Below, piece by piece: positions 7,726 to 46,800 of a stretch of DNA of 64,000 nt. Position 1 is the first letter of the stretch, and each line of letters opens with the position of its first letter. The position numbers and the translations under genes were made by a program. Under the pieces are notes generated by a model, which did not search any database, was not told the DNA's origin, and worked only from the letters and a program-made list of their open reading frames with translations. The stretch lies in IMG/VR virus record IMGVR_UViG_3300050821_006280, positions 32,001 through 96,000 of that record. One strand, given 5' to 3'. This DNA comes from a virus.

Positions 7726-7992
7726 TTATGACTTTCGTCGTCTCACCACAAGCGCTGGCTGAATCCGAGGTCTTTGTTCAGAAACCGGCTCTTTCTTCGC
7801 TTGATCGGCATTGCGAAGATACTGCAAAAGTGCCGTTTGGAAAACCTGGGCTGCCGTGCATCCCTCTTTTGCCGCCTGATCAGATATCAATCTATAAGTC
7901 GAAGCTGGAAGCACAAGAAACATGAATTCTGTCTCGGGTGCTTCACCAAGAATTTGGCTAGCCTCTCGAAGCGGCTCGCCTTTCACCTTCAC
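7726..7992 (-). CDS. Ribbon-helix-helix (CopG-like) DNA-binding protein
   Basis: FLVLPASTYRLISDQAAKEGCTAAQVFQTALLQYL; GTG start overlaps the upstream stop. Confidence 0.5.
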   Translation of the reverse strand: MKVKGEPLREASQILGEAPETEFMFLVLPASTYRLISDQAAKEGCTAAQVFQTALLQYLRNADQAKKEPVSEQRPRIQPALVVRRRKS

Positions 7993-8822
7993 GATCCGCC
8001 TCCGACCGGAGCTGGTGTCCCAATAGCTCCAGAACCACCATCTCGTTTTGCTGCAAATGGAACGGGGTCGCTCATGTACCACTGGATGCCCATCTCCAAT
8101 AGACGGACTTCTGCCGGATCCATTTGCGGCATCTTTACTGCCGCACGCTGGAAAGCTGCCTGGAGGATTGCTCCGGTCGGAATCGTTTTGTCTTTCGACA
8201 TGATCTCTAGCGCAGCCTTCCAAACCCGCCACGCCCCTTCACTCCGAAAGCCGAGGCCAGGAGATTTCGCCGGATCGTAAATTCCGCCCTGAGGCTGTCC
8301 ATCGCTATTATTCGAGAACCCAGGACCACCAATCGTTGGACCACCCTGGCGAATATTGACGCTGAGCGGATTCGGGACGGCAAATCCTGTCCATGCTACT
8401 GCACCTGCGCCGCTGCCCCCGGAAAACTCCAATAATCCCAACGAACGCCTCATCTCATGAATGACCCTGACCTTAGACGGCGGCACCCAGGAGGAACCCA
8501 TAGCTCCGCCACCAGGCCCAGCCCCAGCTCCGCCGGCTCCAGCTCCGCTGCCAGATGGAGATGCGCCACCAGCCGCTGGCGCATCGTCAGCGTCATGATC
8601 TCCGTCGTTGCCCGAATACGATCCAGGAGTCTTCGGGGTTCCAAGGCTTCCGCGATAGAACAGAGGAGCAAATGCCGCCGTATAGTGTTTTCTCTTCTTT
8701 TTCTTTGACTTAGTCTCTTCCTTCTTCTCTTCTTGGAAATCTGGCTCGAACACTTGGGCCTGCCGCGCTGATCTTGCAGCGCGATTAAGAACGCTTCCGA
8801 GGTTGTCGAATGAAATCGCCAT
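7989..8822 (-). CDS. Hypothetical Gly-rich protein
   Basis: 277-aa ORF directly after terL. Confidence 0.65.
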   Translation of the reverse strand: MAISFDNLGSVLNRAARSARQAQVFEPDFQEEKKEETKSKKKKRKHYTAAFAPLFYRGSLGTPKTPGSYSGNDGDHDADDAPAAGGASPSGSGAGAGGAGAGPGGGAMGSSWVPPSKVRVIHEMRRSLGLLEFSGGSGAGAVAWTGFAVPNPLSVNIRQGGPTIGGPGFSNNSDGQPQGGIYDPAKSPGLGFRSEGAWRVWKAALEIMSKDKTIPTGAILQAAFQRAAVKMPQMDPAEVRLLEMGIQWYMSDPVPFAAKRDGGSGAIGTPAPVGGGS

Positions 8823-8825
8823 TGT

Positions 8826-10856
8826 TTACCCCGTGAGAAACGGCATAAAAAAGTTCGATGGCTCTACAATTTCGCGCTGTTGATCAACCATCGGATCTCC
8901 ATACTGAGAGATGCCTCTAACGATACCCATAGGTGCACCACGATATTTCGTCGTCAGAGAATACACGACGCCAGCGAGCGCATCGGACACGTCCTTAGAT
9001 CCGAGTCTCGGGTGATCGACCTTGTTCCGTATCCTGTCATGTTGCAGAGCGCGAAGTTCTTTGAGAACAGGCTCATATCTGTACATCATCAATCTATTTT
9101 CGTAGATAGCAGCCTTGAGTGTGTCATAGGCATCCATCGGCTTATCGACAGACACCCGTTCTGCTTCGATCCCTTGTGTTGTAAAAATCTGGAGAGACGC
9201 AGCCGAGTTATATTGATCCATAGAGAGATATCCGACCGCGAATCCGTGTTGCCTCATCTGATGGACCAGTCCTCTAACTTGCGCCTGATCGATTTCCCCG
9301 CCAATGGGCGGAATGATTCTCAACATCAGGTCGATCCAAATGATCGGAGCAGGCTCCGTATATGTCTCGCCAGTCTCCATGTTCCGTCGCTGAACATTTT
9401 TGAATCCCACCACGCAGCCACAGCAAAAACCAGTTGCGTCACTTGTAAGAGATGGGTCGATATGGACATGCCGCGTAGTGCCAGGATGGAATTTCGGAGC
9501 CCACCCATCGAATAATTCGGCCCCATCGCGTACCCTTACCTGGCTTGCAACCCGGTCCCACAGGAACTTGCCACTACCTTTCTGATCCCATTCCTCTACT
9601 GAAAATGGATGTTGATGTGGCGAATCGCTAAGCGAAAGACACTTTTCGAGAAGATCACGCTGCTGAATGAACGGGCTGATCGATACGGTTTCAACACCAG
9701 CAACGTCTCGAATGGACCCTTCTAGATCTGCCTCGAAGTCTTTGCGAAAGTCTTCTGGTACCGAGATGATGATGACACTGTCAAACTGACCGCTCTCCTT
9801 CAGCTTTTCACGGACTGGCTCGACTTCCTCGTCCTTCAAAATGCGTGATGGAACCGTCTCGTTACCGACCAATACGTGGAATGTCTTCTGCCCGTAAGCT
9901 TCCCGCTTTACGTCCCACATAGCGTAATCGCGGACAAAGACCTCGGGGTCATCCTTTGAGTCCCGAATCCTCTTCGCAGTAAAGTCTTCTTTCGTGCGCT
10001 TCGATGACACTACGATCATGAGGCCCGGCATACGGCCGCCTCTCATGAAGCGGGACTTCATACGTCGGACTAGCTGATCGTATAGCGCTTGTGCTTTATC
10101 TCTGTTGCCCCATCTTTCGTTTGCTGACGCTCCACGCTTGAGATTCTCGAAAAAGTTACCTTCGTCCATGATGCCGCCAAAGACGTTCAAACCCAGGGCA
10201 GCCGTATCAGTGGATGCTCGCGGAGCGACCCAGACGTTGTGCGGGAATCGAATTTCGCGTTTCGTTACCTCGAACGGGAAATTCTCCATAAAATATGGGG
10301 ACTGCTTGATTTTCGTGACAATATTCTCGAACACAACCTTCATCGCCAGCTGTTCACTGACGGAGATTGCGATCAGAGCAATGTTGGTGTCTTTAGCAAT
10401 ACCAAAGCTACGGTGTGGATCGCGAAGACAAGAGATCTCGTACAACACTCGGATCAATGCGATCGATGCAAAGAAGGTTTTTCCCCAACCGATCGATCCA
10501 GTGAGAATAGCCTCCCTGTAGCCACCATCAAAAAGCTCTTTAAGATCCTCGACTAACTGAGGATACAGGTTGTCGCATGTGGTGCCGAGGTAATAGGGGT
10601 CCTTGATGAAAGTCTCGATATCCACCATTGGGCGGAGGTATTCTCCGTCGCTGAGCGCATCGTAGATGCGAACTGGACCACCCCCGGTCTGAGCCTCAAT
10701 CGGACTTCGCATCGCAGGATCGCCCATCTCTCGAATCGTGAGAACAAGCGCCTCCTGCTCGGACGGAGATAGCTTCTGAAACTCCTTGAGAAGCATCGAA
10801 AGATACTCCTCGTTTGTCCTCTCAGAATGTACCCGGCCCCCTTTGTCCTTGATCAC
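8826..10856 (-). CDS. terL: Terminase large subunit
   Basis: Walker A ILTGSIGWGKT, Walker B GGIMDEG, nuclease motifs HVHIDPS and KVDHPRLGSKDVSDA. Confidence 0.93.
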   Translation of the reverse strand: MIKDKGGRVHSERTNEEYLSMLLKEFQKLSPSEQEALVLTIREMGDPAMRSPIEAQTGGGPVRIYDALSDGEYLRPMVDIETFIKDPYYLGTTCDNLYPQLVEDLKELFDGGYREAILTGSIGWGKTFFASIALIRVLYEISCLRDPHRSFGIAKDTNIALIAISVSEQLAMKVVFENIVTKIKQSPYFMENFPFEVTKREIRFPHNVWVAPRASTDTAALGLNVFGGIMDEGNFFENLKRGASANERWGNRDKAQALYDQLVRRMKSRFMRGGRMPGLMIVVSSKRTKEDFTAKRIRDSKDDPEVFVRDYAMWDVKREAYGQKTFHVLVGNETVPSRILKDEEVEPVREKLKESGQFDSVIIISVPEDFRKDFEADLEGSIRDVAGVETVSISPFIQQRDLLEKCLSLSDSPHQHPFSVEEWDQKGSGKFLWDRVASQVRVRDGAELFDGWAPKFHPGTTRHVHIDPSLTSDATGFCCGCVVGFKNVQRRNMETGETYTEPAPIIWIDLMLRIIPPIGGEIDQAQVRGLVHQMRQHGFAVGYLSMDQYNSAASLQIFTTQGIEAERVSVDKPMDAYDTLKAAIYENRLMMYRYEPVLKELRALQHDRIRNKVDHPRLGSKDVSDALAGVVYSLTTKYRGAPMGIVRGISQYGDPMVDQQREIVEPSNFFMPFLTG

Positions 10857-11632
10857 GGCGCACCAGGCGGCAACACCGGTGCAGATCCACCTTCGTTCTC
10901 GTTCCCCTCCGCATCGTCTATTGGCTTCGCATCGATCACGTCAGGTTGCTGAACGTCGCTAACTCTCCCCAGCACATCGACGACATCCAAGCTGGCCTTT
11001 GCTCCGAGCTGAAACAGACGCTCTGCAAGACCTAAGACCTTACGCCGCGAGTCTGGATCGGAAATGACCTTCCCAATGGAATCCTTGCCGTAACGCTCAG
11101 TAACTTCTGCGGCGACCTGGCCGGTGACTTCCATCGTTCCAAGCTGTCGTTTTACAAGCCCAAGGTCCATCTTCAGCTCAGCTGATTGCCGCAGGATCTT
11201 CATTGCAACGAAGACTTCTCTGCCCGTCGTCGCAAACAGCTTGCCCAGCTTTTTTTCGTTCTGAAAGTCGATCTGGATACGTTCTTCCTGAAGTTTGTAG
11301 AGCTTCTCTAGCTCATCCAGCTCGCTGATCCCGTCAGCTAGCTTTCTCGTAGCGTTACGAGCCACCAAAGAATTTGCCGAGACCATCGACAGCTCAGCTG
11401 CTGGAATCGTACCGCGGTAAGTATCAATGAGCTTCTTGATGTACGTGGCCGATAGGTCGGTCCACTCGCCAAACTCTTGCTGAATCGCCTTCGTCAAGGC
11501 TGGCGTCGTCCATCCAAGACGAAGCCTACGATCAATCTCGCTAAAACACTCAAGATCACCAAGCCGTCCCATCCCACCGCCGCCGCCACGGCTGATCGGA
11601 GTGATCCTTGGCTTTCTCGGCTCATCATTCAT
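10853..11632 (-). CDS. Putative terminase small subunit
   Basis: Helical 259-aa ORF with an N-terminal HTH-like segment, coupled to terL. Confidence 0.55.
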   Translation of the reverse strand: MNDEPRKPRITPISRGGGGGMGRLGDLECFSEIDRRLRLGWTTPALTKAIQQEFGEWTDLSATYIKKLIDTYRGTIPAAELSMVSANSLVARNATRKLADGISELDELEKLYKLQEERIQIDFQNEKKLGKLFATTGREVFVAMKILRQSAELKMDLGLVKRQLGTMEVTGQVAAEVTERYGKDSIGKVISDPDSRRKVLGLAERLFQLGAKASLDVVDVLGRVSDVQQPDVIDAKPIDDAEGNENEGGSAPVLPPGAP

Positions 11633-11755
11633 CAGGAATGTCCTTACCCGATATAAATCGATCGGGTTATATAGACAATCCTATATCAATAACGAGACTT
11701 ATCGCAACCTGGCGCTAGGTAGGGGAGATCTTCGACGCAAGTGTCTGCGCGGAAG

Positions 11756-13108
11756 CTACTGCTGGGGAGGCATATCATCCGCGGGCTGTTCTTGGATGAT
11801 CGAAAGAAAATCAAATCCTTCATCGCTGATTTGGCCAATCATCGCATTGACATATTCGATGATATTGACGTTCGTAGGGCCATCTGCACCATACCCTCGA
11901 CGCAGAGGTACAAGGACATTGGATACAAACTCGATCGGTCTCTCCAAAACAGAACGAGATTCCATCTGGAGGTATGCCATCCTTGCATAGAAACCTGCGA
12001 TGCCCTGAAGAGGGATATCCAGAGCCGCCAGGACACGTCCAGCATGGAGGGCAATGTCGTCGCTAAGAGCTTCGCATACTTGATCAAACGTTACGAGTGC
12101 CTCCTGGACGTTTATCGGCGAAAGACTCTCTAGCAAAAAAGGAAGATCCCACGAGCTTGCTGGCTGAGCTGACGCAGCCCTGTCCAGTCCTGAGTAATTC
12201 TTCCTGCCCCAGCCCTTAGCCCGTTGGTTCGCATAGGCCTCAGCTGTCATTCCAGGATGCGGAAACGATAGCTGAAGATTCGGAATCACTAAACGATCGG
12301 TATTCATGTTGTACATGTAACTACTGAGCGGGCGCTCTTGTACGCCGAGTACGAAATCGATTGCATAGGCGCGATAGATGCTGTGGCGCAGCCGATCGCT
12401 TGACCGCGCCCACCTCTCTTGGTCTGAGACTCCAAGAGTTCCCCAGTATTCAACAAAATCATCCGCATCCGTGGGACAGAGCTGGAGTATTGCTGCCATC
12501 CCTAAACGCTCATCAATTTCGATAGGAGAAGTGCGCAGCTGGCGAGCCATGCGTTCACGAACCGCATCCGAAATAAGCGGGACGGGATCGATATCCCTCA
12601 CCACCAGTGGTGGTACTAGATCTTCGGACCCGAGGGCCTTTACAACCTCGTATGCAGCCTGCTCGCGACGTAGCAAGGCATAGTCTTCATCGAGCTGGTA
12701 CTCCTCACCCCACCGCTTCTGAAGGCCGTCTGATGGGTCCTCGAACTTGAGCCAACAGCTTCTGAGAGCTTCCCCGAGCCGCACGCGTGCCCAGAAGACA
12801 CCACCAGAGCCATCTAGCACCCTCTCTTCGACAAGCTCGATAGGAGCCTCTAGAAGCATCTCCCAGAGATCAGCCTCCGGCTGATTCCACGGAGGTGCTC
12901 CTGCGTCGCCATCGAACCGAACAGCTGGGAAAAGAACCATACCCGTGTGCGGCGAAATCGTTGGGTGCTCCGGTAGCTCAACTATGCCCTCCGCAGGAGG
13001 TTCCTGGCTTTGAGCTTCGATCTCGGTTGGGATTGGAGCTGGCGGGGAGTGGCTGAGAGTGCCGAAGACGTTGCTCAGCTCAGACAGCGGTCTCTTGCTC
13101 TGCGACAA
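11756..13108 (-). CDS. PI3/4-kinase/HipA-like fold protein K3, probably a pseudokinase
   Basis: CWLKFE, RREQAAYEV, LVPPLVVRD and AIDFVLGVQER; catalytic Asp and DxG/DN motifs are degenerate; paralog of 14880..16559. Confidence 0.7.
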   Translation of the reverse strand: MSQSKRPLSELSNVFGTLSHSPPAPIPTEIEAQSQEPPAEGIVELPEHPTISPHTGMVLFPAVRFDGDAGAPPWNQPEADLWEMLLEAPIELVEERVLDGSGGVFWARVRLGEALRSCWLKFEDPSDGLQKRWGEEYQLDEDYALLRREQAAYEVVKALGSEDLVPPLVVRDIDPVPLISDAVRERMARQLRTSPIEIDERLGMAAILQLCPTDADDFVEYWGTLGVSDQERWARSSDRLRHSIYRAYAIDFVLGVQERPLSSYMYNMNTDRLVIPNLQLSFPHPGMTAEAYANQRAKGWGRKNYSGLDRAASAQPASSWDLPFLLESLSPINVQEALVTFDQVCEALSDDIALHAGRVLAALDIPLQGIAGFYARMAYLQMESRSVLERPIEFVSNVLVPLRRGYGADGPTNVNIIEYVNAMIGQISDEGFDFLSIIQEQPADDMPPQQ

Positions 13109-13379
13109 GTTCAGCCTCCGGGAGAAGTTCGATCAGTTCCGACGACTTCCCAAGGTACTTGAAAGCGGTGCGCACGTCATTCACCTGAGCAACGTACAAA
13201 GGGTTCATCGACGACCGAAGATCGTCATGAGCCGCCTGGAGAGAATCATATGGCAGCTCCTCCTGCGCGATCTTCCCGTCCGACATCAACCGCCTAACAG
13301 CGACCATCCCTTCGTCGTCGATGTAATAGACAGCCGAAACCTTTGAAAAATCCCCTGAATATCCAAACATCACCGTCAT
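13080..13379 (-). CDS. Small partner protein A3 of the kinase cassette
   Basis: 99-aa ORF overlapping the K3 start; GGAG RBS and TATAAT upstream. Confidence 0.6.
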   Translation of the reverse strand: MTVMFGYSGDFSKVSAVYYIDDEGMVAVRRLMSDGKIAQEELPYDSLQAAHDDLRSSMNPLYVAQVNDVRTAFKYLGKSSELIELLPEAELVAEQETAV

Positions 13380-13425
13380 CTGTTACCAGTCTCCTGGCCT
13401 ATTATACGAACGATAATCACACGGA

Positions 13426-14637
13426 TTACCGGCTTTGGTTCCCATGATCTGTCTGTGTTGCATCGTTCTGCCGGAATCTATCTGGTTGATTTATTGCGCG
13501 ATTGGCAAGCGTGCCTTCCAATCCATGAGTTAAAAGCTCATGCGCATTTCGTTGGATCAACGAGGCGTCATCGGGATGGATGCCATGTTGCCCAAAATGC
13601 TCTCCACGCACGTAGGAGTGTAGTTGAGCTTGGACCTCGGGAGGGAAATTCGTCCCCCACTGCATCCCGTTCTTGTCATACGCCAGCTTTCCCCCTGGCA
13701 AGAAGTGAGAACGGACGCTCTCCTTGCCATGCATCTCTCTCCACGCACGCTGCGCATGCGATTCGCCGCCGATATCGTTGTCGAAGAGAACTGGGTGCAC
13801 CTTCCCATTCTGTCCGCGGGACAAACGAATATTCCCACCGTGACCATCTGTCTGACTGTGAAGAACATGAGCGACGGCGCCGATCATTCGATGCTGATCA
13901 TCAACCGCATCAATATCCCCCTGGCTCGAATGAGAGAGATTTTCGCCTGGAGAAAATTCGACAACATGCGCCGGCTGGCCTGCATGCGACCTTGCCATCT
14001 TCAACTGCTTTTCAGGCGTATCACTCTCGTCGGGATATGGGTGGCGCTTCGTCAACTGTCCGTGACCATGAAACGTACCGACGAAATTCGGCGTACCCAT
14101 GTGATGAGCACCGACCGCAGATAGGAAGTCATAGAGATGGGCGTTCTTAGCCCCGATTCTCTCGGGCTGATGAGTTGGATCAATCGTGGCCAACGGCTTC
14201 AAGATGGCCTGGTGACCGTTGCTCATTCGGGAATGAAAAACAGCATTCCGTGAGTCACCGAGATGTCGGACATTTTCAGCACTGGCTTGCTGATCGTTAT
14301 ATCGCTCCATGTGCTGCTGCTGGCGGATATGGCCATGCGGCAAATCTGGGCGCGTCTGCTGTGCAAGCGTCGGCTGCCCCGTGTCATGAGCCATAAATGG
14401 CTGTCGGACAGGCTGAATAGGTGATGCCATAGGCTCAACAGCAGGCGCTCCTCCCGGAACTCCCGTCGCAATTGCCTTCTTCCTAGCCTTTGGAGCCGCG
14501 GCATTTGTTCTAAAATCCGCCATTGGCGGTGCTGGCGCCTTTGGCTCTTTCCTTGGCATGTCCCGCAAATAGGAGAGATCTGGTGTTTCCTCGAACAATG
14601 CCGATACAGGCATTAGCGGCAACTTAGGCGCGCGCAT
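13426..14637 (-). CDS. PI3/4-kinase/HipA-like kinase K2 with intact-looking catalytic motifs
   Basis: AILKP, catalytic loop QTDGHGGNIRL, metal-binding VLFDND. Confidence 0.7.
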   Translation of the reverse strand: MRAPKLPLMPVSALFEETPDLSYLRDMPRKEPKAPAPPMADFRTNAAAPKARKKAIATGVPGGAPAVEPMASPIQPVRQPFMAHDTGQPTLAQQTRPDLPHGHIRQQQHMERYNDQQASAENVRHLGDSRNAVFHSRMSNGHQAILKPLATIDPTHQPERIGAKNAHLYDFLSAVGAHHMGTPNFVGTFHGHGQLTKRHPYPDESDTPEKQLKMARSHAGQPAHVVEFSPGENLSHSSQGDIDAVDDQHRMIGAVAHVLHSQTDGHGGNIRLSRGQNGKVHPVLFDNDIGGESHAQRAWREMHGKESVRSHFLPGGKLAYDKNGMQWGTNFPPEVQAQLHSYVRGEHFGQHGIHPDDASLIQRNAHELLTHGLEGTLANRAINQPDRFRQNDATQTDHGNQSR

Positions 14638-14896
14638 ACCCCATAACCTCGACGGACACACCAGGGCAGCAAGCCAGTTTTTGGCGTAGTAGCTCTAGTG
14701 GGGAGACAAGCATCTCCCTGGCCTTAATCTCTAGATCTTCTTGCGAAGGTACCAGCAACCCTTCCCAGACGCTGGATACAGCAATCTTGCCATCGAGCGT
14801 CTGCCAAGCATCGCAACCTTGATCCAGTATCATCTCGCCTCTGACGAGCTTCGCCCTGAATATACGAAGGCGTCTCGTATCACTGATCGCTGGCAT
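14624..14896 (-). CDS. Small partner protein A2 (paralog of A1)
   Basis: DAWQTLDGKI...SPLELLRQKLA aligns with A1 DAWQDDAGQI...SPLAILEKRLA. Confidence 0.65.
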   Translation of the reverse strand: MPAISDTRRLRIFRAKLVRGEMILDQGCDAWQTLDGKIAVSSVWEGLLVPSQEDLEIKAREMLVSPLELLRQKLACCPGVSVEVMGYARA

Positions 14897-16559
14897 CTTC
14901 TTCCTTGTCTTCCGCACGCATTTCAGCTGAGAAGTCGAACGTTCGGCCTACCACGTTCGACATCACCTCGTTCACATAGTCCTCAACTTCCATGAACTCA
15001 GCTTCAATCGGCGTTGGATCTATGCTTTCTGCCAGGGCGGTAAAGTAGTCGAGCACCAAGAATGGATTCCTCGCGAGCTGCTGGTGATGAGTCCACAGCA
15101 TCCCGACACGAGCAAGCATGCCAGCAATGCTCAGCAATGGAATCTGATGTTCCATAAGCGACCGCACAAGCTCTGGCGATCGGTCATTACGGAGGTGACG
15201 GACAGCTGTTACAGCGATCTCCTCATAGTCACGAAGCTCTTGGTCACCACCACGAGTAGCAACCATCATCACCGGATCGCTCCATAAGAGCGGAAACGCA
15301 TTGGCCTCCACTGGTGGATCAAGATAGGTCTGACCATACTTCGATCGCAGAAGCACAAGACCATGCGGATTGGGCAGCGACAGCTCGTTGTCTCTCAAGA
15401 CAATGGCATGTCGATTATTGATCCCACCTCCCCACCCAATGCTGCCGAATGTTCGATCTCCAGTCCAAAGGATGAAATCGAATACAGCAGCCCGCAAAAT
15501 CGCCATGCGTCGTTCTGTCGGCATCACTTCAAAAAGACGATTCAGAGCGTCGTTTTCTACCCCTTCTGGCTCCTCGAATAATTCATGGAACCACTTTTCT
15601 CCATCTATGCCATGAATTCCATCTACATAGAACTGCACAGCGGCATAGCCCTGGAGATGGCGGCGAATCTTGTCAGGCTGATCGCCAACCACACGAGAAA
15701 TTGACTCCTCGAAGCGTTGCTTCCTCTCGATCAGCTCGTCAGACATAATGGCATCGAGACCACCGAACTCATCATGACGGAGCACTGTCGGTGGCACGAT
15801 ATCGTCAAATCCAGATGCCTTGGCGATCTCATACGCTGCTGCGGCCCGACGAGCAAAACCACCTTCTTTTTGCTCAGCGTCATACAGGTCACCCCAGACA
15901 TCATAAAGGTACGGGTCGTTGAGACCTTCGATCTTCAGATATCCTTTATGGATGTACCCATCACCACCTTCGATCTTGACGAGCATACAACCCGTTGAGC
16001 TGCCAGCCACCCGGAACTGAGTCATCCTTCCCGTACGTAGCCGTCCAACTAATTCTGGCTCTGTAACGCCCCACAGCATCTGCTCGCCAGCAGTTACAGT
16101 GTTTGCAGGGACGTACATCGACAGCGGATTCGTTGCCCGCGCCGTCTTGTTATTTACATCGTAGCGACGACGGACCTCCGGCGGGACTGGGTCTTCTGCG
16201 TCTTTGCCGTCACCAAGCTCCCAGGCTAGGTCCAAAACCTTCACGCTCACGCGAGATGGTAGAGGCGCTTGAATCTGCTCCTGAGGAGACTGCGCAGCTG
16301 CTTGGTCAGAGGCAATCTGATCTGCCGGCTGTGGTTCCTCGTCAGGAACCTGTGACTGTTGAGTTGCTGGCCCACTCGCCGCCGGAAGCTCATGTTCCTT
16401 CCGTTGAGCATAACGATCGCCGGGAGCAGCCTTCTTCACGTGGAATGACTGCTCATACTCATACGTCTTGCCGTCAGGTCCCTTGCGCTTCAGCTTGCGA
16501 ATGACACGGTGAAGCCCTGCGGCCAGATCCTCAGACACCACCTTCTCACTCTGGCTCAT
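14880..16559 (-). CDS. PI3/4-kinase/HipA-like fold protein K1
   Basis: KGYLKIEG, RRAAAAYEIAK, IVPPTVLRH, AVFDFILWTGDR and IVLRDNELS; ATG at 16559 (MSQSEK). Confidence 0.75.
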   Translation of the reverse strand: MSQSEKVVSEDLAAGLHRVIRKLKRKGPDGKTYEYEQSFHVKKAAPGDRYAQRKEHELPAASGPATQQSQVPDEEPQPADQIASDQAAAQSPQEQIQAPLPSRVSVKVLDLAWELGDGKDAEDPVPPEVRRRYDVNNKTARATNPLSMYVPANTVTAGEQMLWGVTEPELVGRLRTGRMTQFRVAGSSTGCMLVKIEGGDGYIHKGYLKIEGLNDPYLYDVWGDLYDAEQKEGGFARRAAAAYEIAKASGFDDIVPPTVLRHDEFGGLDAIMSDELIERKQRFEESISRVVGDQPDKIRRHLQGYAAVQFYVDGIHGIDGEKWFHELFEEPEGVENDALNRLFEVMPTERRMAILRAAVFDFILWTGDRTFGSIGWGGGINNRHAIVLRDNELSLPNPHGLVLLRSKYGQTYLDPPVEANAFPLLWSDPVMMVATRGGDQELRDYEEIAVTAVRHLRNDRSPELVRSLMEHQIPLLSIAGMLARVGMLWTHHQQLARNPFLVLDYFTALAESIDPTPIEAEFMEVEDYVNEVMSNVVGRTFDFSAEMRAEDKEEDASDQ

Positions 16560-17016
16560 TTTCGCCTTCCAGAAGTTCCGTCCTGAACCAGCTTGCACGA
16601 GCCAATCGCTTCTCCAAGATTGCCAATGGAGAAAGATCCCTGGCCAGTGACGCATTCAAATATCGCTGCTTTGCTTGGGGCTCAAATAGCATCACAGCAA
16701 CCATCCCAGAGCCCTGGATCTGGCCAGCGTCATCCTGCCATGCGTCACCAAGGGGTGCTTCACCGGGCTCGTAATCTGGCCGGAGAGCGTAGACCATCAG
16801 GTGTCGACTATCGCCTACTGCCTGATCTTCTGTTGGTCCCGAATATTCATCCGGCTCTTGTTCCTCATCGGGCACGCTTTGCGGCTCTTGAGGCTGTTCC
16901 GATTGGTCTTGATCCTCTGGAGGCAAATCCTCAGGACCAGGCTCTTGCGGCGTGTCTGCCATTGCAGGATCCTGAGCTTCCCCCGAAGAATCAGCCGGCG
17001 CATCCATGTTAGCCAT
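16546..17016 (-). CDS. Small partner protein A1 with an acidic N-terminal extension
   Basis: Paralogy with A2; overlaps the K1 start. Confidence 0.65.
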   Translation of the reverse strand: MANMDAPADSSGEAQDPAMADTPQEPGPEDLPPEDQDQSEQPQEPQSVPDEEQEPDEYSGPTEDQAVGDSRHLMVYALRPDYEPGEAPLGDAWQDDAGQIQGSGMVAVMLFEPQAKQRYLNASLARDLSPLAILEKRLARASWFRTELLEGENEPE

Positions 17017-17871
17017 TTACGCCCTCGCTGCGCCTGTCTTTCCGTTCGCCTTCTTCTCATCGAACGAATCAGCTGCCTTCTGAATCGCTTCTCCAATCAA
17101 TTCATTGATATCGACATTCGCCGTTCGGCACTTAGTCATGATCTTCTTCATTGCATCATGAACTTTCTTGGACATGGCGATATAGGTGTGTTCCTTGCCG
17201 CCCCATGCAAAGACCATGAAGTTGAACCTGATTGAATCCCCATGCTCCTGGAAGAGGTGCTGAATGATACGCTCCAGGTCATTGATGGTACGGGCTTCCT
17301 TGGCTTGTGCCTCAAACTGCTGAGCCATCTCAGGGGGAAGCGTCGCCTTCATCTCTTTCGAGATTTGCTTGATGATCTTCTTCAGCGGCGCATCGCTGGT
17401 ATATCCCATCATTCCAGCGACTTTATCCTTCCCGTACTTGTCCGCCATCTCTGTGTAGAGTTTGGCCATTTTTTCCGGGTTCATCTCGCCATGGATGATA
17501 TTGAGACGCAGGTTCTGGAGTTTTTGATAGTCGAGATCCTTCCACTTCGCGTTCTTGGGGACATCGACTGGAATCTTTTTTAGACCCAGCTCCTTAGCAG
17601 CCTGCCAACGATGATGTCCGCCGATGATGATGTGATGTTCCCCATCCTCGTGAGGGACAGCGATAACTGGATCGATGAAACCGCATTCTGCGATGTTATC
17701 TTTGAGCTTCGCATACTTATCTGGCTTCATTTCATTTGGGTTATATTCCGTAGGGATCAGCTCATCTGGAGAGAGAATGATCCTGTAAGTATCCAGAAGA
17801 TCCTCTGCCTTGATCTCTGCTTCCCCGTTCTCGTCTCCCGCGGCGCGCTTTTGGTCATCCTGCTTATTCAT
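17017..17871 (-). CDS. ParB/Srx N-terminal domain protein
   Basis: YNPNEM, GFIDPVIAVP, IIGGHHRWQAAKELG. Confidence 0.85.
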   Translation of the reverse strand: MNKQDDQKRAAGDENGEAEIKAEDLLDTYRIILSPDELIPTEYNPNEMKPDKYAKLKDNIAECGFIDPVIAVPHEDGEHHIIIGGHHRWQAAKELGLKKIPVDVPKNAKWKDLDYQKLQNLRLNIIHGEMNPEKMAKLYTEMADKYGKDKVAGMMGYTSDAPLKKIIKQISKEMKATLPPEMAQQFEAQAKEARTINDLERIIQHLFQEHGDSIRFNFMVFAWGGKEHTYIAMSKKVHDAMKKIMTKCRTANVDINELIGEAIQKAADSFDEKKANGKTGAARA

Positions 17872-18138: not shown

Positions 18139-18939
18139 TTACTTGGCGATTTCTCCCACGCTAACAAACAAGATCGGTTCTTCGATGTGGATTTCTACGA
18201 CTTCAGAAGTATCCGAAGATATCGTTCTCCAGATATCCTCGGTCAAAAGCACTGGTCGATTTTTGGAAAATGCAGCAACGATCCAAGACCTGGTATGACG
18301 ACGACGATCCCAACAGCGCTTGCACAGCCCATCTCCAGAATGCCGCTCGCGCTCGCCAGTGCCACTAGCACTGCACTGAATGCACCTGTCGATGTCGTAT
18401 TGGCGAGACCACTTCCTCTTCTCGTTCTTTAGATACTCGATGATTTCATGAACCTGGTCATCGGTAATCATGTACTTCCGTAGGCCATAGCGTTTCCAGG
18501 TCTGACCTATCGCATCGCGCGCCCGACGAATCTGACGCCAGTCATAACCAGTTTCTCGCTCGATACGACCACGTGTAAATGTCCCCTGCGTCGGTGAGAA
18601 CCCAAGTTCATAACAACGACGTTCGATTGCTACGCGGTTCCGCCGAGGAAGAAGATCCATCAATTCAAAAATCGACAGATGCCCAACATTCTTGACAAGT
18701 ACTAGATCTTCCTCTCGGCTCCACGGATAGGTTACACGCCCTGGCCTACAACCGGCGCGACGACCCTTTTCCTCTCTCAGCTTGAGAACACTTGCTTTGA
18801 ACCGAACCACGGACACGGTCTTGTTCAACGCCTTGGCCACGTCGGCATCACGCATCGTGCCCCATAGCTCTCTAAGCTTGGTCAGCTCATCCTCCGTCCA
18901 GGTGCTGCGCCTACCAGAAGCCCGGAGTTTGAATCTCAT
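18139..18939 (-). CDS. DNA-binding protein with two Myb/SANT-like repeats and a C-terminal Zn finger
   Basis: WTEDELTKLRELW and WSREEDLVLVKN repeats; CIQC...H.GDGLCKRC. Confidence 0.65.
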   Translation of the reverse strand: MRFKLRASGRRSTWTEDELTKLRELWGTMRDADVAKALNKTVSVVRFKASVLKLREEKGRRAGCRPGRVTYPWSREEDLVLVKNVGHLSIFELMDLLPRRNRVAIERRCYELGFSPTQGTFTRGRIERETGYDWRQIRRARDAIGQTWKRYGLRKYMITDDQVHEIIEYLKNEKRKWSRQYDIDRCIQCSASGTGERERHSGDGLCKRCWDRRRHTRSWIVAAFSKNRPVLLTEDIWRTISSDTSEVVEIHIEEPILFVSVGEIAK

Positions 18940-19056
18940 CTTGTCGCCGATCCTATACCAGCATATCGGTGAGCGCAAATACTAGCGTATCGCCGTTAAA
19001 CTACCACGGACGAACTTCTGATCGTTTTATCTGTAAAAGAGGAAGGGTTGTGGTGA

Positions 19057-42587: not shown

Positions 42588-43895
42588 ATGGCATGTCAAA
42601 TTGTGGATCTGGTTGCGAAGTTTGATCCTGGCAATATTCCGCAGCCAATTCCTTATGTTTCGGTCTTTGCCGAGCCATCGGTAATTCCTGTCTTCATCCT
42701 AAGCAGCAGCATTTTTCGCGAACCCTTCATGGGTCGACGTGTTGCTTCGACGGACGTGAATGGACAATTCACATTCCTTCTTCCATGGCCAAGCGAGCAG
42801 GACCCTGCGCTAGCTAATTGGATCATCACTCTTCCAGATGGTTCTCGGTGGATGGGTCTTGTTCCTCAGGGAGTCAGCGGCCCTCTAACGATCCACGATC
42901 TAAAAATTCATTATGGCTGGGGGCTGATCGACAACAACGGTGTAATTCCCGTTGCCATTGAAGGAGATCCAGGCCTCAACTGGGTTGGAACTTGGTCGTC
43001 CAGTGTCCCATACGAGGCAAACGATGCAGTCTCATTCCTAGATCCGACCGGCGGCGGCATTCCGCTTATATCGAGCTTCCGTTGCCTTATTGCCAATCTG
43101 AATGTTCCTCCCATTACAGGAGGCGTCCTTTCTCCAGATTGGGCTTATATCGCACAGCATGGCGGATCGCCTGTTCCTGATTTTAGTTCTAGTCCCGATC
43201 AGTTTCTGAGAGTAAATGACGCAGCAACCGCTCTGAACTGGGTCACTCTCACAGCGGATATGATCGCAGCGGCGTTCATCCCAACTCTGAGCGGGCCGGC
43301 TTCTCCTGTCGAAGTCGGATCGACGGTCGTCAATCCAGCGTTCACAGCCTCATACAATCGTCCGGCAGCGGCAGCAACGTTAAACGATGGGACTGGAGCT
43401 ATTGGCCTTACGTCGCCATTCACGGCATTTGCGTATGGATCTGGAACGCTACCGCCGCGGAGTTACACCAGAACAGGGATCAATGCCGTTGTTACTTGGA
43501 CGCTAACCGCAAACGAGACGGGTGGTCCCAGCAAAACCTCGTCAGCTAGTGTCCAATGGGAAGCCCGAGCATATTGGGATACCGCAGTTGATCCAGGCAT
43601 TGGAGGATATACAGCAGCCTTCATTACCTCGCTGACAGGAAACGCATTAGAGCCTGGCTTCGCCCGAACGATTGCTTTTGGAGCTGGCGGTGGCACCAAG
43701 AAGATGTACTACGCGTTTCCTACGTCCTTTGGAACACCTGCACGCTTTTTGAACATCGATACGGGCTTCGCGATCCCGTTCTCCAAAGTGGGGTCAGCTG
43801 TTTCTGTCACTAGTACCTTTGGCGTCACGATCAATTACGATTTGTGGGGCAGTGACTTTGCCGTTGTCGGCGCAGTCAACGCGGGAGTTTCATAA
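42588..43895 (+). CDS. Putative tail/fibre protein (shared N-domain, carbohydrate-binding-like W...Y...D motif, Ig-like C-terminus)
   Basis: Paralogous N-terminus; GTWSSSVPYEANDAV. Confidence 0.7.
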   Translation: MACQIVDLVAKFDPGNIPQPIPYVSVFAEPSVIPVFILSSSIFREPFMGRRVASTDVNGQFTFLLPWPSEQDPALANWIITLPDGSRWMGLVPQGVSGPLTIHDLKIHYGWGLIDNNGVIPVAIEGDPGLNWVGTWSSSVPYEANDAVSFLDPTGGGIPLISSFRCLIANLNVPPITGGVLSPDWAYIAQHGGSPVPDFSSSPDQFLRVNDAATALNWVTLTADMIAAAFIPTLSGPASPVEVGSTVVNPAFTASYNRPAAAATLNDGTGAIGLTSPFTAFAYGSGTLPPRSYTRTGINAVVTWTLTANETGGPSKTSSASVQWEARAYWDTAVDPGIGGYTAAFITSLTGNALEPGFARTIAFGAGGGTKKMYYAFPTSFGTPARFLNIDTGFAIPFSKVGSAVSVTSTFGVTINYDLWGSDFAVVGAVNAGVS

Positions 43896-46800
43896 TGAAC
43901 GGCAAGATCCCTATTCAGGGTACGCTCACTGCTGACGGAACCTTTCCGATCGCCAACGGAGCTATTCAGGTTCCTTCTCAGGCTGGATCACGCCAAGTCA
44001 TCTACGTCCGCCCCACTGGAAATGACACCACTGGAGATGGCAAAACACCAGGAACCGCCTTCCGCACTGTACAATTTGCGCTCGACACGATCCCCGTTCT
44101 CCAACGTAGCGTTAGCTACGTCGTTGATATCACCGGAATCAATGACGCGAACCAGGCGATCAAGGTTCCCCCTTATGCATCTGATAAGCAGATCTCCTTC
44201 AATTTCTCGCCTCCGTCACCAATGCAGCTATATGAGGGATACGTCACCCTCTTAGCTCAGCCAACGGTTGCTGCGACGCTTAATACTGGGACAACCACGA
44301 TCTCCAGCGATCCTATTACTGGGATGAGTATCGTCACCGATACATCGCAGTCATGGACTGTAGATCAATGGAAGAATTCGCTCGTTGCTGGAGGTAGCCT
44401 TTTCGAGGGCGGCATCGTTGAGCACAATACGGCTACCCAGCTCTTTATAGCTGGGTCTGTGTTCTCAACTCCGGTACACCTCTTGACTCCAGGAGCGACG
44501 CTTACCGGAGCAAGCAATGTTCCGACGATATCAATCACCAATGTCCATGCACCATTCGTCATTAGCGGCATAAGTGTACAGAACGCAAACGCCAACACTG
44601 GAGCCATTCAAGCAAACAGCTGTGACTTCGTTGTTCTAGACGCATGCATCACCAACGAACTGATCATTGGCTTGAACGGCGCCTGTGACAGTATTCTCAT
44701 ATTTGGATCATTCATTCTTGGGGCAAGCGGCACCAGCCTCACGGATATGATCATTACGTCTGGAACTATCGATATTCAACGGAGCTATATTCGGAACTCG
44801 ACTCCATCGTTTACGTGTCAATCAGTAAATTTCACATTTTGCGGCCTAGAGAATGTCCGGTTCGCTGACGCAACAACAAGCTCGCCGCCATTCGTCGACA
44901 TTTTTGGTCTTCATATGGTCGGACAGGGCCTGTTGGTTATGGGCCAATGTTCGATCGCTGATATCAAAGTCGACAATGCGACTAATGGCGGGTCTCCGCA
45001 CCAAAATCCAAACGGAAGCGGAATCATAGTCTTTGGCGGCGGCGTTCTTGATATTGCAGGCGATGGCGGCAACGTTGGTGGCAGTGGCAATCAGGGTTAT
45101 GGACTCGAAATCCAGGCGGGTGGTTCTGCCTTTTTTCAATCCGGTCATGTTCCAACCACTGGGACCCTGACGATCACTGGAACACTTGGAGATTGGGCTG
45201 TAGGCCGGCGCGCTGGAACCTGGACCACCCTTGCTGCCAATCACCCGGTTTGGACTGTTTTCGATCCATCAACTAGATCATCTATGGCGCCCAATGCTGG
45301 TGCCGAGATTACTCCTCTGTTCGAGTCGTATGCGACTTCTGGCCGACCCGCAGCTACTACAGTTGCAATCGGCGTCGTCATTCGTGATACGACAAAGAAT
45401 ACTTTCAGCTTTTCGGACGGAACCGGCTGGAACGATCTCGCTGTAAGTCCTGCTGGAGGATATTTGCCGCTTGCAGGCGGCACGATGACTGGTGCGATCG
45501 ATTCAGCCTCTAATCTCCAGCTCGGTACCACCACTGCTACAAACATTTCAATCGGTAACTCTTCGTCCTCGACGACGCTCAGTGGAGTGATCGCAAGCGA
45601 CCTCTCTTTCGTCAAGGAGACTGCACGCAATCTCGGAATTGCCACATCAACCACGATCGGCGCCGCCGGCCCGACGCTATCAATCAATGGCGCTACTTCA
45701 GCCGCTGCTAGCGCAGGAGCCGCAGCTGGACAAGCTGGCTTGCTCGCGCTGGTTGGTGGCGTCGGCGGCACTTCAAGTTCAACGCAGGCTGCGGGTTCTG
45801 GTGGTGACATCAGCATTATTGCGGGCGCAGCCGGATTGAACGCGCTCGGAGGTGGTGCTGCGGCCCGAGGCGGAAATCTCGTACTCGACTCGGGTGCTGG
45901 TGGGACTGTCAATGGCAGTATAACGATAGGTGCAACCAACGCCCTCTCTATTGGTGTTGGGCGCAGTGGTAGTACCACGACCTTCTCTGGTGCCATCACT
46001 TTTCCTGCGGGGTCGATTGCGATTGCTGCTCTGACAGCAGATACAATCGTCATTGCAGCTGGAACAGGATTGTCAGGTGGTGGGTCAGGTACTTTGGGCG
46101 GCAGCGCTCCAGCTCTTAGTGTTGTTTACGGCACTGCAACTAATACAGCGACACAAGGTAACGACTCACGTCTCCCACCTGCTCCTTCTCAGCTTGGAAA
46201 TTTGATCTACGATACGGGATCTGCATACGCAACCGTTGCCCGCGGCGCTGCAAACACTGTCCTATTAGGTCAGGGTGCTGCTTCGCCGTCTTTTGGCGCA
46301 GTGCCTAACGCTGCACTTCAAAATAGCTCTATCACCGTTTCTGGTAGCACTGGACTATCTGTAACAGGATCTCCAGTCTCCCTTGGCGGAACGCTCACGC
46401 TCACTAACTCGGGCGTGACGTCCAATGTTGCCGGTGCGGGCATTGCTGTCTCTGGTGCAACAGGTGCAGTGACGATCTCGATTCCGAGCGGCGCTGTCAC
46501 TACAGGGATGCTCGCTAACGGTGCCTACGTCCAGCTCAGTCCAGGATCACAGCAGACCGGCAGTAGCAACATCAGTTCAACGAGCGAGGCCGATGGAGGG
46601 TTCCTCGGGCCATCGCTGACCGCTTTGTCTGGCAGCAACTTGACGATGTCGAGCGCAGGTGCACAGACCACAACAGTACAAGGCGGTGCAGCTGGCGGAA
46701 TATTGGATCTGTTTTCACCGACTGGGACGATCAATATAGGCACTGGAACCGAAGCAACAATTAACGTAGGCAACGCTGCCGCAAAGCTGTCGATACTTGG

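Follow-up and report, generated by a model that had tools for sequence, protein, structure and literature searches.

A stretch of 64,000 nucleotides from an uncultured T4-type phage (hereafter the window) encodes, just before its DNA-packaging genes, an alternating series of small (A) and large (K) genes in the order A1-K1-A2-K2-A3-K3, read from open reading frames (ORFs) on the minus strand at 11756-17016. On balance, we regard these six genes as a fixed segment of an operon in one clade of uncultured T4-type phages, in which one kinase predicted to be competent (K2), two paralogs that have degenerated (K1 and K3), and three translationally coupled small proteins would make up what is likely a kinase/pseudokinase complex. 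Such a set of kinase, pseudokinases, and small partners has no earlier description in phages. The original prediction, which took the locus for a kinase/pseudokinase array with cognate inhibitors or adaptors, is partly supported.

The module lies between replication and recombination genes upstream and packaging genes downstream. Its immediate upstream neighbour is a ParB-like gene (17017-17871, minus strand; PF02195, E 1.8e-9; phrog_26387, E 2.3e-55), whose TAA stop codon directly abuts the ATG of A1. Three start sites were refined, all of them considered likely: K1 (14880-16559, minus strand, within ORF 14880-16655) begins with MSQS at ATG 16559 to give 559 aa, in agreement with its homologs; A2 (14624-14896, minus strand, within ORF 14624-14917) begins at ATG 14896 to give 90 aa, in agreement with its orthologs and an Atlas record; and K2 (13426-14637, minus strand, within ORF 13426-14661) begins at ATG 14637 to give 403 aa, the length of the closest homolog cluster. 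ORF coordinates are used for A1 (16546-17016, minus strand, 156 aa), A3 (13080-13379, minus strand, 99 aa), and K3 (11756-13108, minus strand, 450 aa, TTG start). Neighbouring genes overlap by 14 nt (A1/K1), 17 nt (K1/A2), 14 nt (A2/K2), and 29 nt (A3/K3), with a GGAGG-like site 8-10 nt upstream of each downstream start, and the sole separated junction is the 46-nt gap between K2 and A3. All six predicted ORFs are thus present and each small gene does overlap the start of the following large gene, as had been proposed, and these overlaps of 14-29 nt, together with the sites resembling ribosome-binding sites, suggest that small and large genes are translationally coupled. The proposed location just upstream of the terminase was likewise confirmed, K3 being followed immediately by a TerS-like gene (10853-11632, minus strand; phrog_35167) and the large terminase gene TerL (8826-10856, minus strand; phrog_2 and phrog_9). 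A search for the T4 late-promoter motif found none.

K2 is predicted from its residue pattern to be a catalytically competent atypical kinase, because a Lys-Pro pair (K155-P156), a D-x-H-x-x-N loop (D272 to N277), and a D-x-D motif (D294 to D296) are kept throughout its relatives; 8/8 orthologs share these residues without change, and in 30 family representatives they are either invariant or conserved to at least 90%. The canonical loop noted at the outset is indeed found in the window's K2 as TDGHGGN, along with FDND, and the catalytic loop aligns with DRHGQN and IDLG of Tel1. The AF2 model (pLDDT 86.8) comprises a disordered N-terminal region of ~80-110 residues and a kinase domain resembling type II phosphatidylinositol (PI) 4-kinases, for which the nearest solved structure is 4pla_A (Z 16.1, 244 residues aligned, rmsd 3.6), ahead of Fam20 (12.8), actin-fragmin kinase (12.2), and CotH (11.2). 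Weak matches to PF00454 were found in 15 of the 30 family members (best E 3.1e-6), and the window's own K2 fell below every Pfam threshold.

K1 and K3 are paralogs, as originally suggested, with 25% identity over 386 aa in BLASTP (E 4e-12) and a profile-profile E of 1.5e-29 over 359 columns; the shared MSQS start is present in this phage but is not conserved among orthologs. In K1, a conserved basic N-terminal hairpin and a disordered linker of ~100 aa precede a PI4K-type-II-like kinase fold at ~160-530, modelled by AF2 with a pLDDT of 67.9 overall and 77-95 in the core. Its best structural match is again 4pla_A (Z 18.6, 263 residues aligned, rmsd 4.6), followed by Fam20 (15.3) and CtkA (13.1), and Foldseek matched it to PI4KII-alpha with E 1.7e-6. 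The kinase fold of K3 is assigned through its sequence homology to K1. The PI3/PI4-kinase-like fold anticipated for the large proteins therefore holds, for K1 and K2 through models closest to type II PI 4-kinase and for K3 by way of K1. Between K1 and K2, hhalign gives E 0.025 and a colinear alignment that places D368 on D272, S373 on N277, and D390 on D294; K2 is thus related to K1 and K3 at the level of fold and motif only, and homology is not demonstrable from sequence alone.

The graded loss of catalytic motifs described earlier is also evident, K2 being intact, the window's K1 partly degenerate (GDRTFGS, RDNE), and K3 degenerate (QERPLSS, PNLQ). Among K1 orthologs, the beta3 Lys and the metal-binding Asp are not conserved, while the catalytic-loop Asp is kept in 13/13 K1 sequences. 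In K3, E, N, or S stands in place of the catalytic Asp (one ortholog has D), and the DFG-equivalent Asp is missing in all but one ortholog. Most K1/K3 members have G or N at the position of the metal-binding Asp. Both families keep the Gly-rich loop, and nine charged residues are invariant in all 16 K1/K3 sequences (R238, E244, K247, D253, R351, R356, D361, R369, and R484 in K1 numbering). Given that neither the beta3 Lys nor the metal-binding Asp is conserved and that the proteins nonetheless evolve under purifying selection, K1 and K3 are predicted to be pseudokinases. The window's own K1 retains the Lys, the catalytic Asp, and the DFG-equivalent Asp, and so could have residual or alternative activity.

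Among the small proteins, A1 and A2 were correctly recognized as paralogs (BLASTP E 1e-3; profile-profile E 2.6e-8 over 85 columns). A1 consists of a ~90-aa core homologous to A2 plus, in this phage, an acidic N-terminal extension of ~60 aa, and positions invariant across 16 sequences are D..R, WQ, G, S.L, and E. No match to A1 was found in Pfam, PHROG, NCBIfam, or PADLOC. A3 showed no detectable relation to A1/A2 in profile-profile comparison (E 0.4-0.5). Its family carries the C-terminal motif D(L/V/I)R(S/T)A.(K/Q)YLGK..(D/E)L...LP(E/D) (majority sequence DLRSAFKYLGKSSDLVETLPE); the reported ELLPE is present in A3 and takes the family form (T/L)LP(E/D), with L86 and P87 invariant and D at the last position in 1/8. 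A weak search found no A-K fusion that would speak for an interaction of the two. Because A1 is homologous to A2 and K1 to K3, small-gene and large-gene homology are out of register, and the simple triplication of an A-K cassette first envisaged does not hold.

The gene order of the module is identical in 7/7 distinct related viral contigs, each with the TerS/TerL order conserved, and an A1 ortholog precedes K1 and an A3 ortholog precedes K3 in all seven, so that small genes do accompany the large ones in relatives. The ParB-like gene occupies the same position in 6/7 distinct contigs (seven loci with the near-duplicate L006), and the contig L014 begins at A1. Per-protein identity in these contigs is only 32-43% for the module versus 57% for TerL, and none of the homologs bears an informative name. 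Between two relatives, the A2-K2-A3-K3 block is 84-97% identical and the flanks 56-78%. Pairwise dN/dS is below 1 for all six genes, some K1 and A1 estimates being saturated, and is 0.05-0.33 for five genes where dS is unsaturated. Values were 0.09 for K1 (near saturation), 0.05-0.17 for K3, 0.08-0.29 for A2, and 0.13, 0.33, and 0.69 in three pairs for A3. These ratios point to purifying selection on K1 and K3.

In the kinase/pseudokinase complex that we favour, K2 would use ATP to phosphorylate a target, which is most likely a protein of the host or of the phage, while K1 and K3 would act on K2 without catalysis of their own, as regulators, scaffolds, or substrate adaptors, in the manner of the pseudokinase Fam20A with Fam20C. 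A1, A2, and A3 may be stoichiometric subunits (chaperone, inhibitor, or adaptor) held at a fixed ratio by the start/stop overlaps. The position of the module at the boundary between replication and packaging genes suggests that it would act either at a late stage of infection or when the next cell is injected.

Instead of a protein, K2 might phosphorylate a sugar, a lipid head group, a modified DNA base, or a similar substrate in the course of decorating phage DNA or virions. The closest structures of K1 and K2 are the lipid kinase PI4KII and the Fam20 family, which includes a sugar kinase, and the neighbouring gene encodes a ParB-like DNA-binding or nuclease protein; however, the 109.6-kb contig (~68% complete) contains no glycosyltransferase family 2, thymidylate-synthase, or hydroxymethylase-like genes, and protein kinases are frequent in this fold class (HipA, CtkA, Fam20C, CotH, and actin-fragmin kinase), which leaves such a role rather unlikely. 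We give still less weight to the idea that K1 and K3 are not dead but perform other chemistry on a kinase fold, so that the module would comprise three different enzymes. SelO and SidJ use the kinase fold in this way, for chemistry such as AMPylation or glutamylation, and the Gly-rich loop, the catalytic-loop Asp of K1, the invariant charged residues, and the strong purifying selection would all fit. Conserved charged residues are, however, equally expected of a binding surface or structural network, the metal-binding Asp is replaced in most members, and neither SelO nor SidJ shows a specific similarity in the fold lists. Least probable of all is the toxin-antitoxin logic of HipBST, with the K proteins as HipT/HipA-type toxin kinases and the A proteins as HipS-like inhibitors that descend from the N-terminal subdomain of HipA. 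Both HipA and HipT belong to the wider fold class and turned up in the fold searches of K1 as well as K2, but at Z 9.0-10.4 versus 16-18.6 for PI4K, and they are outranked by PI4K type II, Fam20, CtkA, CotH, and actin-fragmin kinase. Domain searches detected no HipA_C, HipA_N, Couple_hipA, or HipB-like HTH domain, PDB searches with profiles of A1/A2 and A3, run up to E 10, returned no HipS chain (for A3, no other PDB or Pfam relative either), and the structural neighbours that the Atlas gives for A2 and A3 (low-confidence models) are unrelated to HipS. Two of the three supposed toxins, moreover, have lost catalytic residues. An overlapping small gene before each kinase-fold gene and the conserved (T/L)LP(E/D) motif of A3 speak for the HipS analogy, which the results as a whole do not support; as a link to HipS, the LLPE-like motif is a four-residue match only. 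Nothing was found in support of the suggested decoy role against kinase-based defence, and PADLOC returned no hits.

A further proposal, compatible with the kinase/pseudokinase complex, is that K1, and perhaps K2 and K3, are targeted by short N-terminal leaders to the prohead core, cut behind a hydrophobic-x-Glu site by the T4-type prohead protease, and delivered along with the DNA so as to act at once on the next host, the A proteins being packaging helpers or inhibitors that quiet the enzymes in the producing cell. The phage encodes a Peptidase_S77 prohead protease (T4 gp21 family) and a T4-type portal, and the module adjoins packaging and head genes. K1 carries V/L/I/F-x-E at residues 4-10 in 8/8 orthologs, before its basic hairpin and long disordered linker, and this phage's K2 (LFE) and K3 (LSE) have such a site within their first 17 residues, as few non-head proteins do. 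The N-terminal L/V-x-E sites first remarked on are therefore real in all three K proteins of this phage but conserved only in K1 orthologs, the position being R, A, or K in those of K2 and R or S in those of K3; the motif is also short and common. Enzyme fusions to MuF or portal domains have been argued to be virion-delivered (PMC5512222). As a precedent for the fold near head genes, the K2 model has its best BFVD match in a 1201-aa protein annotated as an HK97 portal, but global superposition is poor (rmsd 34), and the replication and recombination genes upstream suggest that the module may not be late, which argues against packaging. Packaging into the capsid is accordingly possible but weak, and we hold it to be doubtful, though less so than the readings above.

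Several known systems offer partial parallels. HipA/HipT and HipBST (7ab3, 5k98, 4pu3) share with the phage set a broad atypical-kinase fold class and a small gene upstream of the kinase gene, whereas they form a chromosomal toxin-antitoxin locus and the phage genes belong to a packaging-proximal operon without HipA Pfam domains, a HipB-like HTH, or a detectable HipS-like partner. T4 Alt and the internal proteins are capsid-targeted, protease-trimmed, and injected; they have no sequence or fold relationship to the K proteins, but the phage has the same S77 protease family and portal type, and K1 has a conserved hydrophobic-x-Glu site, the leader being conserved in one of the three K families. 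A viral precedent for the fold near head genes is gene 16 of the haloarchaeal virus HSTV-2 (PF00454, E 1.5e-5), which sits between capsid and tail-sheath genes and, in profile comparison, matches the K2 family (E 5.5e-4, 213 columns) and the catalytic-loop region of K1/K3 (E 4.8e-4), a relationship that we consider marginal. Weak PF00454 similarity and a head/tail setting are thus shared, whereas HSTV-2 is a virus of archaea whose head module is of the HK97 type, and its gene is single, with neither pseudokinase paralogs nor small partners noted; we know of no experimental study of it. Type II PI 4-kinases (PI4KII-alpha/beta; 4pla, 4hnd; PF00454 superfamily) are the best structural match for K1 and K2, and K2 has their beta3 Lys-Pro, D-x-H-x-x-N, and downstream metal-binding Asp in the same order. 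Sequence identity is, however, just 5-14%, the window proteins are below the Pfam threshold, and the phage-encoded set has long disordered N-terminal regions and two of three copies without catalytic residues; phosphatidylinositol is also missing from many bacteria. The second-best structural neighbourhood of K1 and K2 is that of the Fam20C kinase and the Fam20A pseudokinase (5yh3, 5wrr). These are eukaryotic secretory-pathway proteins, unlike the phage set, and close paralogs, whereas K1/K3 and K2 share fold and motif only, but in both systems a kinase that is active, or predicted to be so in the case of K2, stands alongside degenerate relatives of the same fold, and the Fam20 pair offers a model for how K1 and K3 may regulate K2.

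The six genes A1-K1-A2-K2-A3-K3 form a real and conserved module, in which small ORFs (A1-A3) alternate with large ORFs encoding kinase-fold proteins (K1-K3) on the minus strand of the window. The source contig in IMG/VR is 109,558 bp long, with a completeness estimated at 68% by CheckV, and the window covers its bases 32001-96000. In the direction of reading, the module comprises A1 (16546-17016), K1 (14880-16559, read from its MSQS ATG), A2 (14624-14896, with the start set by orthologs), K2 (13426-14637, starting at the ATG at 14637), A3 (13080-13379), and K3 (11756-13108). Three start sites were adjusted by ortholog comparison; for K2, the closest homolog cluster is exactly 403 aa long, which is the length of K2 from the ATG at 14637. 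The stop codon of the preceding ParB-like gene directly abuts the A1 start, as read from the sequence, and consecutive genes overlap by 14 nt (A1/K1), 17 nt (K1/A2), 14 nt (A2/K2), and 29 nt (A3/K3), with a purine-rich, RBS-like site lying 8-10 nt ahead of every downstream start. K2 and A3 are the sole separated pair, with a gap of 46 nt.

Several local features accompany this layout. A TATAAT box is located in the K2/A3 gap at approximately 13401, and a hairpin with a 7-bp stem, ACCCGAT...ATCGGGT (window 11640-11690, minus strand), occurs within the 123 nt that separate K3 from the TerS-like gene; it is preceded by CTATATAA and stands about 15 nt ahead of the TerS RBS. Each of the two, judged from its sequence, may represent an internal promoter or regulatory site. 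The T4 late promoter TATAAATA gave 0 matches, and scans for sigma-70 promoters and terminators produced no excess over shuffled sequences. Additionally, A1 of the window phage is extended at its N-terminus by about 60 residues, among which D, E, P, and Q are highly abundant (window 16830-17016). A long but different N-terminal extension is present in A1 of one related contig, L014 (26-541), while the other six A1 orthologs are about 100 aa long and have no extension.

Seven distinct related contigs, 25-200 kb in length, were recovered when IMG/VR was scanned with profiles of K1/K3 and of K2. In 6/7 of them the gene order is g19057, D5-like regulator, ParB, A1, K1, A2, K2, A3, K3, TerS, and TerL; the seventh, L014, begins at A1 and retains everything from A1 through TerL. 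The small genes therefore accompany the kinase-fold genes in all seven relatives, as the original prediction had anticipated. Across the first four loci compared, the six module proteins are 32-43% identical to those of the window, whereas TerS (49-52%), TerL (about 57%), and the portal (79%) are more similar, indicating that the array is older than the clade and evolves more rapidly than the packaging genes. Comparison of two of these relatives, L003 and L005, points to a recent exchange of A2-K2-A3-K3 as a unit between relatives. This block (L003:11600-15100, corresponding approximately to window 11756-14900) shows 84-97% DNA identity between the two, apart from one interval in the variable C-terminal tail of K2 that falls to 0.56, in contrast to 56-78% in ParB-A1-K1 and TerS; dS is likewise about 0.25 within the block versus more than 1.6 in ParB-A1-K1/TerS. 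The exchange breakpoints would lie near the K1/A2 junction and the K3/TerS gap.

The homologs present in protein collections are all unnamed or annotated as "hypothetical protein". A tblastn search of K1 and K2 against 50,697 GenBank phage records detected no relative among cultured phages, a profile search for further K1/K3 relatives returned the same six proteins only, and searching viral, metagenome, and genome contigs with the distant K2 subgroup gave no loci. Neither the proteins collected nor a search for longer ones, itself a weak one, yielded an A-K fusion.

The paralogy within the array is more complex than a repeated pair. K1 and K3 are paralogs, with 25% identity over 386 aa (BLASTP E 4e-12) and a profile-profile E of 1.5e-29 over 359 columns, and A1 and A2 are likewise paralogs (profile-profile E 2.6e-8) that share, over 16 sequences, the motifs D.RR(L/I)R, AWQ..DG, S.L (mostly SPL), and a C-terminal E; both relationships had been predicted. 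A3 shows no sequence relation to A1/A2 (E about 0.4-0.5) and is marked by a different conserved motif at the C-terminus, D(L/V/I)R(S/T)A.(K/Q)YLGK..(D/E)L...LP(E/D). K2 matches K1/K3 weakly (hhalign E 0.025), yet the alignment is colinear across every kinase landmark. Since the small-gene homology (A1 with A2) and the large-gene homology (K1 with K3) are out of register, a threefold tandem duplication of a single A-K unit is rejected, and the "triplicated cassette" of the original prediction does not hold in that simple form.

The fold of the large proteins was read from structural models. A K2 model built from 30 relatives has a mean pLDDT of 86.8, exceeding 90 over residues 90-390, and against 48,161 representative PDB chains it scores highest with human PI4K type II-alpha (4pla_A; Z 16.1, rmsd 3.6 over 244 aligned residues), followed by Fam20 (Z 12.8), actin-fragmin kinase (12.2), CotH (11.2), and ATM (10.7), with CtkA (10.2) further down; Foldseek matched the same model to more than 100 kinases at E <1e-3. 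The K1 model has an overall pLDDT of 67.9, with 77-95 in the kinase core, and also retrieves 4pla_A first (Z 18.6, rmsd 4.6 over 263 aligned residues; Foldseek E 1.7e-6), followed by Fam20 (Z 15.3) and CtkA (13.1). The modelled K1 and K2 are bilobal and kinase-like, fit best on PI3/PI4-kinase catalytic domains, and so bear out the expected PI3/4-kinase-like fold; K3 can be assigned the same fold through its homology to K1 (E 1.5e-29).

Family models capture these proteins only marginally. Weak matches to PF00454 occur in 15/30 K2-family members (best E 3.1e-6) and in 2/13 K1/K3 members (best E 0.019), whereas K1, K2, and K3 of the window have no match at E up to 1. Because the window's proteins reach no curated threshold, they are placed at the superfamily level, as PI3/PI4-kinase-like relatives and not as PF00454 members. 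Scans of the six proteins with Pfam, PHROG, NCBIfam, and PADLOC returned nothing significant, the sole pointer being a weak match of both K1 and K3 to the SCO1664 family model at the helix-C motif. Against PDB sequences, the K2 sequence and profile gave only a marginal match to the catalytic loop of Tel1, and the K1/K3 profile gave nothing relevant.

The same comparisons bear on the proposal that the module resembles HipBST, which they do not support. HipA/HipT was excluded as the nearest structure: HipT and HipA score Z 9.9 and 9.4 with K2, and HipA and HipT 10.4 and 9.0 with K1, which places them 6-9 Z units under PI4KII-alpha and also below Fam20, CtkA, and CotH, that is, as distant fold neighbours. 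Pfam HipA families are absent from the six proteins, from 30 K2 relatives, and from 13 K1/K3 relatives; the six proteins also lack a HipA match in NCBIfam, and none of them contains an HTH domain, as a HipB-type antitoxin would. The small proteins, proposed to be HipS-like, have no match in Pfam (A1-A3), and at the sequence level, searching the PDB with the A1/A2 profile (16 sequences) and the A3 profile (8 sequences) retrieved no HipS chain up to an E of 10. For A2 and A3, the ESM Atlas offers low-confidence models (pLDDT 0.53 and 0.61) whose neighbours are unrelated to HipS, and the LP(E/D)-type motif of A3 is conserved but too short to carry weight.

The three kinase-fold proteins differ in their catalytic residues. 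In K2, the beta3 Lys-Pro (K155-P156), the catalytic loop D272-x-H274-x-x-N277, and the metal-binding D294-x-D296 show no variation in 8 orthologs, and in 30 family representatives drawn from 1.84 billion proteins they are either invariant or conserved to at least 90%; the loop aligns residue for residue with DRHGQN...IDLG of the PIKK Tel1. K2 alone retains the full set of beta3 Lys, D-x-H-x-x-N, and metal-binding Asp, and is predicted to be active. When K1 is aligned with K2, its D368, S373, and D390 fall on D272, N277, and D294, respectively. The catalytic Asp is kept in all K1 proteins and is E, N, or S in the K3 family, with D in one ortholog; the Asn is S or D in both families, with N in one K1 homolog and one K3 ortholog. 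At the metal-binding position, the K1 family has mostly G or N, with D in the window and two close homologs, and the K3 family has G, with N in the window and D in one ortholog. The candidate beta3 Lys is K, W, C, Q, E, or R in the K1 family and K, R, or C in the K3 family, and no N-lobe Lys is invariant across the K1/K3 orthologs. The "graded loss" of catalytic residues originally described is accurate for the window phage; family-wide, K1 is as unconstrained as K3 at the Lys and metal-binding Asp positions.

Nevertheless, K1 and K3 are preserved. The K1/K3 family retains the Gly-rich loop, together with the invariant residues R238, Y243, E244, K247, D253, P257, R351, R356, D361, R369, and R484. 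Pairwise dN/dS, estimated where dS was unsaturated, is 0.05-0.17 for K3, 0.11-0.33 for K2, 0.08-0.29 for A2, and 0.13-0.69 for A3, and about 0.09 for K1, where dS is near saturation. Judging from these patterns, K1 and K3 appear to be functional but non-canonical, and are most simply read as pseudokinases. We regard this reading of fold and catalytic state as solid.

The module marks the transition from DNA-metabolism to packaging genes, given the replication and recombination genes upstream and the packaging genes downstream. Its immediate upstream neighbours are the ParB-like protein and a 74-aa protein, and the upstream region encodes ParB, the D5-like regulator, RuvC, a Cas4-like exonuclease, a methyltransferase, UvsX, helicases, and a primase. 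Downstream follow TerS, TerL, several small genes, and the portal (Portal_T4, E 9.6e-73), and beyond the portal two proteins without a Pfam or PHROG match and then a prohead protease. The timing of module expression is not readable from gene orientation. Several other features of the neighbourhood were observed. In related contigs, TerL holds two inteins in L005 (1463 aa; L005:16042-20433) and one in L012 (1214 aa; L012:11550-15194), and the L005 homolog of the D5-like regulator (649 aa; L005:6717-8666) holds an intein as well, all with Intein_splicing and LAGLIDADG_3 domains; the window's TerL (8826-10856) and regulator (18139-18978) have no inteins. ORFs 7726-8232 and 7989-8822, both on the minus strand, overlap by 244 nt in different frames; the related contigs contain homologs of 7989-8822 alone, so 7726-8232 may be spurious or start later. 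Farther away, a single plus-strand ORF encodes 3144 aa (window 43895-53329); GC content in the window is highest between 46 and 54 kb, at about 0.57-0.63, and most of the ORF falls within this interval.

The module combines one intact kinase fold with two degenerate ones and three small co-translated proteins, and its genes strictly co-occur under purifying selection; from these features we infer what the module and its small proteins do. K2 would be the catalytic subunit, K1 and K3 would serve as regulators, scaffolds, or substrate adaptors, and the A proteins would be stoichiometric partners; what is seen of the kinase-pseudokinase pairing is co-occurrence (7/7 distinct related contigs) and translational coupling. 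HipA, CtkA, CotH, Fam20C, and actin-fragmin kinase are protein kinases of the same fold class, and since most small members of this class are protein kinases, a protein substrate is favoured for K2 by analogy. Modification of a sugar, a lipid, or DNA by K2 is a real alternative, and the closest structure to its model is a PI4K; as for partners in DNA modification, neither a thymidylate-synthase-like gene nor a GT2 gene is present in the contig.

The original prediction also held that the proteins may be packaged into the virion, given the L/V-x-E motifs in their disordered N-termini and the head-module location. In T4, the gp21 protease trims capsid-targeted proteins after (L/I)-x-E. A gp21-family prohead protease, of the kind used with T4-type internal proteins such as Alt and IPI-III, is encoded by the window phage (window 57-1736; Peptidase_S77 E 5.6e-14, 52.5 bits versus a cut-off of 27). 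In K1, a hydrophobic-x-Glu occurs at residues 4-10 in 8/8 orthologs, just ahead of a conserved basic hairpin that is followed by a disordered linker of about 100 residues, whereas the corresponding K2 and K3 sites are present in the window phage but not conserved in orthologs. PI3/4K-like domains in head modules elsewhere are suggested by two further cases. Gene 16 of the haloarchaeal virus HSTV-2 (KC117376, 10647-12119; 490 aa, annotated as hypothetical), located between the capsid and tail-sheath genes, matches PI3_PI4_kinase/PF00454 (E 1.5e-5), has intact DRHxGN and IDSG motifs, and shows marginal profile similarity to the K2 and K1/K3 families; and in BFVD the K2 model is matched best by entry A0A6J5S481, a protein of 1201 aa that is, by name, an HK97 portal. 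Virion delivery has been argued for effectors in which an enzyme is fused to a MuF or portal domain (PMC5512222). With these observations on both sides, we consider packaging of the module proteins into the capsid unlikely. A fuller version, in which the T4-type clade loads a three-member kinase/pseudokinase machine and its small helpers into the capsid via protease-trimmed leaders and injects them with the DNA, such that host proteins are phosphorylated before any phage gene is switched on and at least one "pseudokinase" may perform non-canonical chemistry, likewise strikes us as improbable.

The immediate gain of this analysis is in annotation, as six ORFs without a Pfam, PHROG, or NCBIfam match can now be labelled by fold and predicted catalytic state. 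If the inferred complex of K2 with its pseudokinases and small partners is true, it would offer a compact bacterial-virus model of kinase control by pseudokinases, a new class of phage effector for host takeover or phage assembly, and a function for a gene block fixed at the replication/packaging boundary across a clade of large environmental phages. No account was found in the literature of a conserved phage operon in which a single intact PI4K-II-like kinase is joined by two pseudokinase paralogs under purifying selection and by three small co-translated proteins. Phages are known to encode protein kinases, T7 gp0.7 being one example, and partnerships of kinases with pseudokinases recur in eukaryotic signalling. 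The best functional analogy for the proposed role of K1 and K3 is the Fam20A/Fam20C pair, found in both fold lists, and a capsid-loaded kinase machine would be the kinase counterpart of T4 Alt.
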